Shown here: piece by piece, positions 45,229-53,691 of the stretch | Position numbering within the stretch: position 1 is the stretch's first letter | How the letters are laid out: each line of letters opens with the position of its first letter | NCBI RefSeq assembly: GCF_054482595.1 | Contig: NZ_CM137008.1 | Reading direction: 5' to 3' (one strand) | DNA: 64,000 nt | Made by a program: the position numbers and the translations under genes | Notes under the pieces: generated by a model | What the model saw: only the letters and a program-made list of their open reading frames with translations | Told to the model about the DNA's origin: nothing | Databases searched by the model: none

Positions 45229-45960
45229 ATGAATCAACCAATACACAATGCTTACTGGTTATCCCGTTTTGAAAGTATTCTCAACGGTGCCCTGGCGCAA
45301 CACCGTGCCGTCTCGTTAATCCGGGTGGATTTACGTTTCCCTGAGTATATGCCTGCCACCATCATGGATACCGATTTAGATTCAGCGGTGATTTCTCGTT
45401 TTTTTGCATCCCTGAAAGCAAAAATTCAGGCTTACCAGCGGAAAAAACGACGTGCCAACAAGCGTGTGCGTGCAACCACTCTGCGTTATTTCTGGTGTCG
45501 GGAGTTTGGCAAGGAAAAAGGCAGGAAACATTATCACGTGATATTACTGCTCAACAAAGATACCTGGTGCTCGCCAGGGGATTTCACCGTTCCTTCTTCG
45601 CTGGCGACGCTGATCCAACTGGCATGGTGCAGTGCTCTGCATCTTGAGCCCTGGCAGGGTAATGGACTGGTTCACTTTTCCAGGCGGACGCCTTTCCGTA
45701 AACCGACATCATCTGATGCTCGCCCTTCTTCCGATGATACGCCTGTGCCTGGTGGATGTTCTGATACCCGGAAGGATTCTGACAAAAAATCTGGTGGATC
45801 CGCTGTTCTCTGGGTCAAGCGTGGTGATGTGGAAGCGATGCAGAAAGCCATGGAGAGAGCCCGTTATCTCGTGAAGTATGAGACGAAGCAGCATGACGGT
45901 TCTGGTCAACGTAATTATGGTTGCAGTCGTGGGCTGGGGCGTCTACTGGATGGCAGGTGA
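45229..45960 (+). CDS. YagK/YfjJ-family protein (inovirus Gp2-type)
   Basis: 243 aa; region RYFWCREFGKEKGRKHYHVILLLNKD resembles the YagK/YfjJ family of CP4-type elements. Confidence 0.45.
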   Translation: MNQPIHNAYWLSRFESILNGALAQHRAVSLIRVDLRFPEYMPATIMDTDLDSAVISRFFASLKAKIQAYQRKKRRANKRVRATTLRYFWCREFGKEKGRKHYHVILLLNKDTWCSPGDFTVPSSLATLIQLAWCSALHLEPWQGNGLVHFSRRTPFRKPTSSDARPSSDDTPVPGGCSDTRKDSDKKSGGSAVLWVKRGDVEAMQKAMERARYLVKYETKQHDGSGQRNYGCSRGLGRLLDGR

Positions 45961-46287
45961 ACCCTGTAAAACAGCATCCGATGCCTGAGTTTATGCCAAC
46001 GCCCTTAGCTCGCTTTCTGAAAAGTCGTCCTGAAGTAATGCAATGGATTGCCATCTACTTCCGTTCGTGACACATAAGTCGAAAAACCTTTGGTTGTTCT
46101 GGTTATTTGCATTTACTGCCATTCATAGAAATGAACAGATCGATTGGTAGGACTCAAATGTTATAGCGTCTCTCTTCTCATAGTCTGCTTTGTACCAGAC
46201 GCGGAATCCCCTAATGCTGGTGTACAGGTTCTGACTCATTTCCTCCCCCACTTTCATCCCGTTATACTGTGAAAAAAGGAGGTAGGC

Positions 46288-47166
46288 GTGAAACTGAAAA
46301 TGCAGGATTTGAGGCTGTTTAATATTGTGTTCGAGAGCGATCCTGGCTGGATACTGGATTTCTCTAACCGCACCTTGTCTGCTTTTTTCGATGAAGAATT
46401 GAACATTGATATTGATGATGAACGTTATCAGAAAGAGGGGACGTCAAAAGCCAAACGAGTTAGATGCTTGCTGAAACAGGTTGATCGTGAGACCGCTCTG
46501 CGGGTTCTTGGTGCGCTCTGGCAGTATAAAACGGAATCCATGCCTGAACAGGCTGAACAAAGCCGTAATGACTATCTTGCACTGATTTCCCGCTTAGAAA
46601 ACGCTGACACCGATGAAGCCAAAGGCGTTAAGCCTGTCCAGGCATGGCATGGTGTTGACTGGCATTCACTTATCGCTGAAATGAACGAGATGAAATCTCT
46701 GCCGCCACATCCACGTGGTTTTCGGTTTGAAGCCTGGCTTGCTGAACTGTTCAGTATCTTTAAGCTTGCTCCCCGTTCGTCTTTCCGAAATACAGGCGAA
46801 CAGATTGACGGAAGTTTCCGACTGAATGATGAATTTTACCTGATGGAGGCAAAGTGGCATCAGAAAAGAACGTCGGCTGCCGACCTCCATGTATTTGAAG
46901 GAAAGCTCAGTACCAAGGCAACCTGGACACGCGGTGTTTTTATCAGTTGGATGGGCTTTACGCCTGAAGGCCTGACGGCTTTTGGTAAAGGGAAGCGGGT
47001 TATCTGTGTCAGTGGTTATGATCTTTACCACTCACTGAATCATAGGATCCCTTTACCCGACCTTCTGGATGCTAAAACCCGGCACGCGGCTGAAACGGGA
47101 GAGCCCTATGCTGAGTTCGACCGACTATATGCACTGAAAGACAAACAGTTCGGCACGCTGAAATAA
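46288..47166 (+). CDS. Mrr-like restriction-endonuclease-domain protein (PD-(D/E)xK), N-terminal domain unknown
   Basis: 292 aa; C-terminal half contains [27 protein letters not shown], fitting the (D/E)-x-GIDG ... x-A-K-(R/W) pattern of Mrr-type catalytic domains. Confidence 0.45.
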
Positions 47167-47180
47167 CGGGTTGGGAAGCG

Positions 47181-47794
47181 ATGACCTGCTCCCCGTTGTT
47201 TCACACAGAATCGTGTACAGGGTCGAAGTTCTGGCTCAATGTGCTGACTGAACTGAAAAACCGCGGTCTGAACGATATCCTCATCACCTGTGTAGATAGC
47301 CTGAAAGGCTTTCCAGATGCCATCAACACAGTATATCCGGAGGCCAGCATCCAGTTATGCATCGTGCATATGGTGCGCAACAGCCTGCGCTTCGTGTCAT
47401 GGAAGGACTACAAAGCCGTCACTCGCGACCTGAAAGAGATTTAATCAGGCACCCACGGAAGAGACAGGCTAGCAAGCACTAGATAAGTCGGAGCTGGCAG
47501 GCTAACTGACCGAATCTTACCACGTTCTTCGCTTATCTGACGGACATTCGCAAAGTGCGCTATACGACGAATGCCATCGAGTCACTAAACAGTGTGATCC
47601 GCCATGCGATCAAAAAGCGTAAAGTGTTCCCGACAGACGACTCGGTGAAAAAAGTGGTGTGGCTGGCAATCCAGTCTGCGTCCCAGAAATGGACGGTGTC
47701 GTTGAAGGACAGGTGTATGGCAATGAGCCGCTTTATTATCGAGTTCGGTGACTGCCTGTCACTTCTGAAAAAAGGCATTTACACAGAATCCTAA
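47181..47794 (+). pseudogene. IS256-family (mutator-type) transposase, fragmented
   Basis: Two short ORFs (…[47 protein letters not shown]… and …TNAIESLNSVIRHAIKKRKVFPTDDSVKKVVWLAIQSASQKW…) resemble the C-terminal half of IS256-family transposases, broken by stops. Confidence 0.5.
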
Positions 47795-47913
47795 ACAGGT
47801 TCCGACATTCCCCACTCATACTAAACACCTTGTCACTTGACGCAGGGCTGAACATTTTACAACAACGGTATACCAATATGATATTGGTTTACTAAATTTT
47901 TTGGGAATCCCTC

Positions 47914-51738: not shown

Positions 51739-51853
51739 AAGTTTGAATCATGAGTTTCCTGGCCCGGAAACACTTAGTCGGTAAAAACTTACCTCGATGA
51801 TTAATGATGTGAACTGAAGTCAACGGAGATCATTCACCCTGAACCTGCATCCG

Positions 51854-52558
51854 GTGTTCTGTCCCTTATCTTCCCGTTCTGCTTCAGTTCTTCACTTATT
51901 CCATCAATCTCATCCGCAAGCCATAACACGTCAGCTCATTCACGGGCAGGACGCATTGTGGGCTGCGCATAACGGAACATATCTTATGAATGCTATTCCT
52001 TATTTCGACTATAGCCTGGCCCCCTTCTGGCCATCTTATCAGAACAAAGTCATCGGCGTCCTTGAGCGTGCGCTGCGTGAACAGTCCTGCTCCCGGGTAC
52101 GGCGGATCCTGCTTCGTCTGCCGTGGGAACATGACAACGCCTTCAGTTGCAGAAAGACCTGGTTAGGCATGGATTTTATCGAAACCGTCAGTGCGCTGAT
52201 GAATGCAACCCCCGGACGCGACCTTTGCTGGATCCTAACCCGTCATCCTGAAAAGCCGGAATACCACGTGGTGCTGTGCGTCAGACAGGAGTATTTCGAT
52301 GGCCCTGAACTGGACCGGCTGATTCTGGATGCCTGGAGCAACGTACTGGGCTTCGCGTCACCGGGTGAAGCGGCACCGTACCAGAAACAGATAACACGGG
52401 ATGTGGTGCTGGACAGTCGTTCACCGGACTGCGAAGACATCCTCAAAGAGTTGATATGGGCGTTCAGTGATTTCGCCCGCGATCGTCGTGGTGTGCGCGA
52501 TCCGGAAGCCCGTTACCTCGCCGGTAACCCCTGGTATCCCGTAGCAGGCCAGTTCTGA
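51854..52558 (+). CDS. Hypothetical protein, possibly a third YagK-like paralog
   Basis: 234 aa; RVRRILLRLPWEHDN ... KPEYHVVLCVRQEYFDG has the same arrangement as the other two; weak. Confidence 0.3.
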   Translation: MFCPLSSRSASVLHLFHQSHPQAITRQLIHGQDALWAAHNGTYLMNAIPYFDYSLAPFWPSYQNKVIGVLERALREQSCSRVRRILLRLPWEHDNAFSCRKTWLGMDFIETVSALMNATPGRDLCWILTRHPEKPEYHVVLCVRQEYFDGPELDRLILDAWSNVLGFASPGEAAPYQKQITRDVVLDSRSPDCEDILKELIWAFSDFARDRRGVRDPEARYLAGNPWYPVAGQF

Positions 52559-52626
52559 AAGCTCAGTTCAGCAGATTCACCCGCATTTGCCCAACATTCA
52601 TAAATCTCACAAAGGACATTCTGACC

Positions 52627-52860
52627 ATGTTGACCACAACAAGCCACGACAGCGTATTGCTGCGTGCCGACGATCCCCTGATCGACATGAACTACATCAC
52701 CAGTTTCACCGGTATGACCGATAAATGGTTTTACAAGCTGATCAGTGAAGGTCATTTCCCTAAACCCATCAAACTGGGGCGTAGCAGCCGCTGGTACAAA
52801 AGTGAAGTGGAGCAGTGGATGCAGCAGCGAATTGAGGAATCACGAGGAGCAGCAGCATGA
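52627..52860 (+). CDS. alpA: AlpA-family prophage transcriptional regulator
   Basis: 77 aa; FYKLISEGHFPKPIKLGRSSRWYKSEVEQW is the characteristic AlpA HTH region. Confidence 0.75.
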   Translation: MLTTTSHDSVLLRADDPLIDMNYITSFTGMTDKWFYKLISEGHFPKPIKLGRSSRWYKSEVEQWMQQRIEESRGAAA

Positions 52861-53052
52861 AACGTGTTGTAATGCCAGTACGCTGGCAATGTGCGAAATG
52901 CCGGCGCTGGTATTGTGGAAATCAGCCCTGTCCCTGGTGCTGGCGCTGACAACTCCCGCTCATCTTTCTGCTGGCACCCTCTGGCCAGCCAACTGTTTGT
53001 CATCATTTCCTGACTGATTCGTCATTCCCTTCGTCCCGCCAGTCACTGGTGT

Positions 53053-53691
53053 TTGTATCGTATCGTGCCGGTGTCGATGTGCGCTTTCCGTGTGTCTGCA
53101 CCGGCTGAACAAAATTCAACAGGGTTTGAAAAGGAACATTTCGTGCAAATAACCGAAGCATTAATTTCAGAGCCGGGAGACATCCGGCGTTTTATTCAGC
53201 AGGCGGTGGACCACTGGCCGCATTTGCTGGCATTTTACTTCACACTCCATTCGGCAGAAGGAAATATCAACGGGCAACAGATTCATGCATTCTGTACTTC
53301 CTTTTACCGACAGGTGCACGAACGTATTACTGAGCGTAATCACACGGCCAGTCCATCCTCGCCGGTGGTATTACGCTGGTTGCGGGAACAACATGGAGGA
53401 GCAACAATACGATGCCTGTTGCTGTTCAGCCAGGAGCTTTTCTGCCATCCGCGAGCCAGTGTGACAGTTGATGAAGAATGTTCGCAAGTGGTGGATTTAC
53501 TGCAACAGAGCTGGCAGGTGATAAGTGCTGGCGGACAATGCCGGGTGGAAAAGCGTTTTCAGGTCGCCCGGGGTGATACATCTGGCCAGTATGTTGCGTT
53601 AAAAACAGTCGCATTGTCTCTGGGGTTACCGGTTGTGACCGCCATTATCTATCGTCCGGTACAGCGCTGTACATTGATTACAGCTCAGTGA
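53053..53691 (+). CDS. Hypothetical protein
   Basis: 212-aa ORF downstream of alpA; no motif assigned. Confidence 0.3.
   Translation: MYRIVPVSMCAFRVSAPAEQNSTGFEKEHFVQITEALISEPGDIRRFIQQAVDHWPHLLAFYFTLHSAEGNINGQQIHAFCTSFYRQVHERITERNHTASPSSPVVLRWLREQHGGATIRCLLLFSQELFCHPRASVTVDEECSQVVDLLQQSWQVISAGGQCRVEKRFQVARGDTSGQYVALKTVALSLGLPVVTAIIYRPVQRCTLITAQ

Follow-up and report, generated by a model that had tools for sequence, protein, structure and literature searches.

Four Diverged YagK/YfjJ-Like Genes around alpA in the Probable Conserved Core of a leuX-Integrated Escherichia coli Genomic Island

The 64,000-nucleotide stretch of contig NZ_CM137008.1 (RefSeq assembly GCF_054482595.1) analyzed here, hereafter the window, is Escherichia coli chromosome and contains a leuX-side genomic island flanked by fim/nan genes and an integrase. 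An earlier note on this DNA had marked at least three YagK/YfjJ-like genes clustered around alpA between positions 45229 and 53691, and had read their number as a sign of merged or tandemly integrated elements. As can be seen in Table 1, four such genes, termed P1 to P4, lie here on the plus strand, the fourth (P4) falling inside the span marked earlier but unnamed there. The coordinates given before for P1 and P2 and the end of P3 proved correct, but the start of P3 did not: RefSeq and most database homologs begin at the ATG at 51986, and an indel in the allele of a second E. coli island (L009, see below) closes the frame upstream of it, so that 51986 is the better start and the GTG at 51854 marks merely the longest open reading frame (ORF).

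Table 1. Genes and noncoding elements of the region, in positions of the window
Element	Position	Strand	Description
P1 leader element	45166..45235	+	includes Shine-Dalgarno GGAG and ATG; begins with palindrome GTAAA-GT-TTTAC
P1	45229..45960	+	classic YagK/YfjJ ("inovirus Gp2 family"); 243 aa; RefSeq WP_001075464.1
AT-rich noncoding region upstream of P2	50440..51171	+	about 0.75 kb; GC 0.37; travels with the cassette
P2	51172..51738	+	"inovirus-type Gp2" subfamily (PF23343/PF11726); 188 aa
Second leader copy, P2-P3 intergenic	51781..51845	+	Shine-Dalgarno kept; CTG (51839) at the position of the P1 ATG
P3	51986..52558	+	degenerate YagK/YfjJ paralog, annotated "hypothetical"; 190 aa
alpA	52627..52860	+	AlpA-family helix-turn-helix protein; 77 aa; PF05930, E = 2e-10; RefSeq "AlpA family transcriptional regulator"
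P4	53143..53691	+	fourth, degenerate paralog (PF27752 UCP030791); 182 aa

The P1 and P2 ORFs each coincide exactly with a RefSeq coding sequence, named "inovirus Gp2 family protein" and "inovirus-type Gp2 protein", respectively. P1 is a full-length member of PF11726 (YagK_YfjJ_C), for which membership is set by the gathering score of 25.8 bits (E = 5.5e-37, 127.8 bits), and also lies above the cut-off of PF23343 (E = 1.3e-9). The protein is found in 1873 of the 5426 complete E. coli genomes, and comparison with the sequences of the Protein Data Bank returned no solved homolog. P2 falls just under both cut-offs (PF23343, E = 3.5e-5; PF11726, E = 2.4e-4, 21.5 bits); its relatives at 48-60% identity in Enterobacter, Citrobacter, Klebsiella, Salmonella and Serratia match one of the two families and many of them both, and "rolling circle replication-associated protein" is among their names. 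PHROGs gives matches for P1 and P2 only among the four proteins, and no NCBIfam model matches any of them. The histidine motif reads H101-Y-H103 in P1 (45529-45537) and H86-A-H88 in P2 (51427-51435), with the tyrosine motif following as Y213-L-V-K216 (Tyr codon 45865-45867) and Y156-L-A-K159 (Tyr codon 51637-51639). P1, YfjJ of strain K-12 and Citrobacter YagK all have HYH and Y-[LM]-x-K, and H86, H88, Y156 and K159 are invariant across 28 P2-family sequences.

P3 has no match in Pfam, NCBIfam or PHROGs. Its family, nearly confined to E. coli, is narrow, since an exhaustive HMMER search with P3 found just two distant relatives at full length: P0188 (34% identity, phmmer E = 3.5e-16) and P0193 (32%). 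Both go under YagK/YfjJ or Gp2 names in Pseudocitrobacter and Citrobacter, and P0188 in turn matches PF11726 (E = 1.4e-10, 41.8 bits). In P3 the histidine motif is replaced by E92-Y-H94 (52259-52267), the first position being E, C or F across the family, which keeps only Y93-H94. Where the tyrosine helix motif is expected the family has S-D-[FM]-[AV]-R-D-R (S161-D162-F-A-R-D-R in P3 itself), with S161-D162 invariant and no tyrosine in that helix. P4 and its relatives are precomputed members of PF27752, "UCP030791" ("putative phage-derived protein"), a name carried by one RefSeq record, while some sources, including the UniRef entry of the exact sequence, use "inovirus Gp2 family"; the Pfam copy that we scanned, which lacks the PF27752 model, gave no match. 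In P4 the histidine motif gives way to T88-I-R90 (53404-53412; A-T-[IM]-R-C in the family), and Y150 stands in a Y-x-x-x-K context, conserved in 90% or more of the E. coli and Salmonella alleles and absent from the Pseudocitrobacter homolog. A syntenic P4-like homolog from Citrobacter, related to P4 by BLASTP at E = 2e-7, covers nearly the whole PF11726 model at 22.9 bits (E = 9.3e-5), which is below the 25.8-bit cut-off.

The basic/hydrophobic segment with an H-x-H-type motif that had been described as common to P1, P2 and P3 is indeed there, the quoted peptides HYHVILLL, HAHAVFWI and EYHVVLCV being residues 101-108 of P1, 86-93 of P2 and 92-99 of P3 (190-aa form). This segment corresponds to the HUH motif of the Rep/relaxase-type nickase fold. 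Among the window's stop-to-stop segments of 50 aa or more, 50,677 residues in all, the pattern [HE]xH[VA][IVL] occurs only five times, three of them in P1, P2 and P3. Pairwise BLASTP between these three proteins is not significant (E = 2.2, 0.048 and 0.021), so that the pairwise alignment proposed earlier as a check would have wrongly failed a finding that holds; at this divergence BLASTP is uninformative and family or profile methods are needed. In the other proposed check, against PF11726-type models, only P1 itself passes at the gathering score, with P2 just below and P3 and P4 unmatched. It is the comparison of family profiles that bears out the relationship to which BLASTP is blind. Thus, a P1-type profile made from P1, K-12 YfjJ and Citrobacter YagK aligns in hhalign with the P2 family at E = 1.4e-5 (172 columns, with the HUH and Tyr positions in register), with the P3 family at 5e-12 and with the P4 family at 8.1e-9. 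The respective scores are 41, 80 and 60, and none of the 40 column-shuffled controls run for each family scored above 26. Hidden Markov models (HMMs) of the four families, run against 509 ORF segments of the window, select each other as best non-self matches, P1 being that match for the P3 and P4 models (E about 2.5e-6), and revealed no fifth copy among these segments. In AlphaFold2 (AF2) models, P3 (predicted local distance difference test score, pLDDT, 72.6; beta-alpha-beta-beta-alpha-beta(-beta)-alpha) and P4 (pLDDT 68.6) share the order helix, strand, helix, two strands, helix, strand(s), helix, and the named viral structures matched by the P3 model are mostly Rep/NS1 proteins. The fold evidence is consistent, though not decisive alone, and it is the sequence profiles that carry the homology claim. 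They indicate that the four proteins are true paralogs, very diverged and very old, their age following from a divergence too great for BLASTP.

The motif pattern divides the four into two pairs. P1 and P2 are predicted to be active nickases because both the metal-binding His pair and the catalytic Tyr, in Y-x-x-K, are kept. P3 and P4 lack the His-hydrophobic-His motif, P3 also lacks the Tyr, and in P4 the sole candidate is Y150. Because the metal ligands are lost and yet both proteins are conserved, P3 and P4, which flank alpA, are most likely noncatalytic DNA-binding partners or regulators. Between alleles from three islands the ratio of nonsynonymous to synonymous substitution rates (dN/dS) is 0.30-0.40 for P1, 0.07-0.29 for P2, 0.13-0.21 for P3, 0.31 for P4 and at most 0.08 for alpA, and none of the alleles of the five genes contains an internal stop. 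All four paralogs are under purifying selection, and the degenerate copies are not decaying.

We then considered how the genes are arranged in other genomes. The block 51100-53700 occurs, at 80% coverage or more, in 1302 of the 5426 complete E. coli genomes, for the most part with 90-95% identity. In sequence type 131 (ST131) and in a river-water strain the four genes and the leader stand unchanged between dsdCXA (upstream) and a contact-dependent inhibition (CDI) locus (downstream), and there is no P1 closer than 14 kb. Beside cadC, another island (L009) has CbtA...GTPase on one strand, followed by a 407-aa hypothetical protein, P1, cargo, P2-P3-alpA and a truncated P4 region, its cargo of pseudouridine and nucleoside genes differing from that in the window, and a B2 strain (L008) has the same P1 half, inclusive of the same Mrr-like gene. 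P2-P3-alpA-P4 together with the AT-rich leader is one inherited, fixed cassette, and P1 is a second fixed position beside the divergent GTPase...CbtA module, with a variable cargo slot between the two. In a Citrobacter-type contig the GTPase module on the minus strand is followed by a Zn-ribbon gene, AlpA, a P1-type YagK and P3-like and P4-like genes, and a Pseudocitrobacter-type contig has AlpA, a P2-like gene, one further gene, and P3-like and P4-like genes; in both, the order of intact HUH gene, P3-like and P4-like gene by alpA is maintained. Among P1 to P4, themselves on the plus strand, the window also has an Mrr-like endonuclease, fragments of IS256-, IS3- and IS21-family insertion sequences (ISs) and an H-NS paralog. 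The minus strand bears a CP4-like module of GTPase, YafY/WYL, DUF905, DUF932, antirestriction, RadC, DUF987, YeeU/CbtA, DUF5983 and DUF957 genes, and a phytase-like esterase is likewise present in the island. Stretches of 45000-54000 are 100% identical in E. coli chromosomes (megablast), and strain EC052 has the region placed between the fim/nan genes on one side and the tRNA-Leu gene leuX on the other, where one integrase, of the P4 type, adjoins the tRNA. We consider that a leuX-integrated E. coli genomic island of the CP4-57/SRL pathogenicity island (PAI) class probably has its conserved core here, holding four ancient paralogs of YagK/YfjJ, a family with the motifs and the predicted fold of HUH endonucleases that nick single-stranded DNA (rolling-circle Rep proteins and relaxases).

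Two noncoding elements accompany these genes. The leader copies upstream of P1 and between P2 and P3 are direct repeats (D2/D4) of 65-70 nt with 74-79% identity (pairwise blastn E = 4e-9), whose 18-mer core occurs at these two sites only, against 0.08 expected. Both are retained in other E. coli islands, though the P1 and P3 proteins share only about 20% identity, and a search for the element in the Citrobacter, Pseudocitrobacter and K-12 loci did not find it. A role as shared operator or leader is plausible. We rejected the idea that a P1-like gene has been deleted between P2 and P3, since only the 68-nt leader matches and no gene-body remnant was found. The approximately 140 nt before the P3 ATG (51846-51985) are almost invariant between alleles whose coding sequences differ by about 10%, the RNA fold of 51781-51995 is somewhat more stable than that of shuffles (z = -2.85), and an Rfam scan of the whole window returned no family. 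The AT-rich region upstream of P2, which contains no plus-strand ORF of at least 50 aa, is conserved at 91% over 740 nt in locus L006 and at 81% over 766 nt in the cadC-side island, despite different upstream neighbors, and is a candidate promoter or origin region. Upstream of P1, in a 1.5-kb AT-rich noncoding gap, lies a perfect 36-nt tandem repeat (44252-44337; 2.4 copies of TATACACGTATTTTTACTAAGCATTTCAGTAAGTGT) that looks iteron-like.

Three other explanations were weighed against this reading. That P3 and P4 are unrelated small proteins, their H-x-H-like segment and profile matches being due to chance or composition and only two true members remaining, is very improbable. Their hhalign E-values are 5e-12 and 8e-9, whereas the shuffled controls never scored above 22 or reached an E below 0.018; their own HMMs choose P1 among the 509 segments, and their predicted secondary-structure order is the same; in addition, P0188 and the Citrobacter P4-like protein match PF11726, the latter just below the cut-off, and P1 and P3 have the leader in common at the DNA level. 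We give next to no credence to the genes being remnants of a decaying inovirus (filamentous) prophage, as the name "inovirus Gp2" would have it. The RefSeq names and the matches to PF23343, "Replication-associated protein ORF2/G2P", speak for such an origin, and one paper takes genes of this kind as filamentous-phage traces (PMC9769692). Other inovirus genes, such as those for single-stranded DNA-binding and coat proteins, a Zot-like assembly ATPase or a secretin, are, however, not annotated in the surrounding 49 kb, where the neighbors (AlpA, GTPase, DUF932, antirestriction, RadC, CbtA/YeeU) are those typical of CP4-like islands, and the four ORFs are intact and under purifying selection.

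The explanation offered in the earlier note, according to which each YagK/YfjJ-like gene marks a separate integrative element and two or more islands have merged or integrated in tandem at leuX, has more in its favor and is in our estimate still quite unlikely. In its favor, the IS fragments, the Mrr-like endonuclease and the H-NS paralog lie between P1 and P2, and E. coli has two intact HUH genes of different subfamilies where the Citrobacter locus holds only the P1 type and the Pseudocitrobacter locus only the P2 type, so that the presence of both in E. coli could reflect an old recombination between two lineages. Against this, there is one integrase from the nan genes to leuX, beside tRNA-Leu, and a search of the window and of L001 with 16-30-nt probes from the leuX 3' end, allowing 2-4 mismatches, detected neither an internal copy nor an internal leuX attachment site. 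The layout of P1, cargo and cassette recurs beside cadC with other cargo; P3 and P4 are constant partners within one cassette and do not mark separate elements; and as BLASTP cannot detect the paralogy, any duplication or merger must be ancient. The premise that one island usually carries a single such gene is not supported either, given the 1302 genomes with the cassette, the synteny in Citrobacter and Pseudocitrobacter, and the three Gp2-family ORFs of the SRL island. Together, the spread of the cassette, its recurrent layout, the synteny, the lone integrase, the missing leuX copy and the SRL island argue that islands of this class normally carry several diverged paralogs, in an arrangement that was inherited and is not the product of a recent merger. 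An ancient recombination joining P1-type and P2-type lineages is possible, because the two non-E. coli loci each hold one intact type only. The cluster is ordinary island architecture, and what our analysis provides is mostly a clarification.

Several neighboring genes deserve mention in their own right. Directly downstream of P1 lies the Mrr-like restriction endonuclease gene (46288-47166; PF04471, E = 1.3e-5), which also follows P1 in the B2 strain and does not in the cadC-side island. It is succeeded by IS256-family transposase fragments (~47181-47794), one of which contains, according to RefSeq, the ORF of the heat-stable enterotoxin EAST1 (astA, ~47368-47433). The H-NS paralog (48923-49363, RefSeq start 49013; PF00816, E = 1.1e-11) lies between IS fragments, halfway from P1 to the cassette. 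Just downstream of P4 and convergent with it, a ProQ/FinO-family gene on the minus strand (53710-54055) is frameshifted in the source strain; the ProQ/FinO name also appears under the match region in some other genomes. Divergent from the GTPase gene, a 376-aa protein (42582-43712) without a match in Pfam, NCBIfam or PHROGs holds the position that a 407-aa protein occupies in the B2 strain and in the cadC-side island. The nan-proximal island edge (~32950-33822; L001 7951-8823) carries a phosphorothioated-DNA-binding restriction endonuclease and an HNH fragment; direct repeats derived from leuX were looked for there and not found.

In CP4-57, excision by the integrase depends on activation by proteins of the AlpA family. 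By analogy, AlpA would promote integrase-dependent excision of the present island, after which an intact HUH protein, P1 or P2, might nick an origin on the excised circle; nicking could lead to rolling-circle replication or to the handing of a strand to a helper transfer or packaging system, with P3 and P4 serving as noncatalytic DNA-binding partners or regulators. A more far-reaching proposal, which we put forward tentatively and consider rather unlikely, is that cassette and P1 form a self-contained replication/mobilization module, in which the dead P3 and P4 are origin-binding or regulatory partners of the live nickases and the P1/P3 leader is a common operator or nick region. A number of observations weigh against our main reading of the region. 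Direct hhalign comparison of the P2 family with the P3 and P4 families is not significant, so that the links between them run through P1-type sequences only, and with Y150 nearly invariant the loss of activity in P4 may be incomplete. Promoter and terminator scans stayed at the level of the shuffle background, and no origin or nick site was identified. The island of the source strain bears heavy scarring from IS fragments and may have lost its mobility, and literature searches for functional studies of YagK, YfjJ, DUF3296, PF11726 or UCP030791 turned up annotations only.

If the module proposal were true, supposedly "nonmobile" tRNA-associated pathogenicity islands of E. coli would gain a means of replicating after excision or of passing to a helper plasmid or phage. 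YagK/YfjJ-type genes occur in thousands of enterobacterial islands, and the spread of CP4-like pathogenicity islands is likewise at issue. Of the complete E. coli genomes, a quarter have the fixed cassette with one intact and two degenerate HUH-fold paralogs around alpA, to which the P1 position adds a further intact HUH-fold copy. Two predicted nickases, two pseudo-enzymes and two conserved noncoding elements thus constitute a target set for the question of rolling-circle replication or mobilization. The annotation can be corrected as well, since the E. coli P3 family is labeled "hypothetical" and the name "inovirus" wrongly implies a phage remnant. New here are the placement of the P3 family of E. 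coli, the connection of UCP030791 with YagK/YfjJ, the pattern of live and dead motifs, and the definition of the cassette; most of the remainder is already reflected in database names.

Among the closest known systems are YfjJ of CP4-57 and YagK of CP4-6 in strain K-12, proteins of PF11726, of which P1 is a full-length member. P1 shares its HUH and Y-[LM]-x-K motifs with YfjJ but has, in addition, a low-complexity insert of roughly 35 aa. CP4-57 is likewise an AlpA-containing, tRNA-associated island, but its only copy follows alpA-yfjI and shares a strand with the integrase, whereas the present island has four diverged copies, lacks a DUF3987 (YfjI-type) gene and carries its alpA block on the strand opposite the integrase. 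With the PF23343 (REP_ORF2-G2P) family and the gpII-type initiators of filamentous phages, P1 (which passes PF23343) and P2 (just under its cut-off) share the HUH motif and the Tyr, and the fold modeled for P3 finds its matches among viral Rep and NS1 models. The proteins described here are by contrast small (188-243 aa), without a helicase or extra domain and without phage genes nearby. P4 is a precomputed member of PF27752 (UCP030791); it lacks the HUH histidines, and profile comparison ties its family to YagK/YfjJ. In the Shigella flexneri SRL island, three Gp2-family ORFs (orf5, orf6 and orf39) occur with the AlpA/Vis-like orf41 (PMC6980539), and this island and related CP4-like PAIs resemble the present one in combining several Gp2-family ORFs with AlpA, the phytase-like esterase also being found in both. 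The SRL paper (PMC6980539) re-annotated the ORFs only, paralogy, motif decay and cassette structure lying outside its analysis. Finally, the Pseudomonas tmRNA (transfer-messenger RNA)-integrated islands I23, I44 and I55 are moved by jumbo-phage transduction, and an integrase, AlpA, an inovirus Gp2-like protein and RadC have been proposed as the core of such transducible islands (bioRxiv 10.1101/2024.08.29.610337). They belong to another genus, use another integration site and are described with one Gp2-like gene per element, but the same combination of functions is present in the E. coli island, a likeness of gene content. By this analogy, the Pseudomonas core set would fit a core mobility role for Gp2-like genes.

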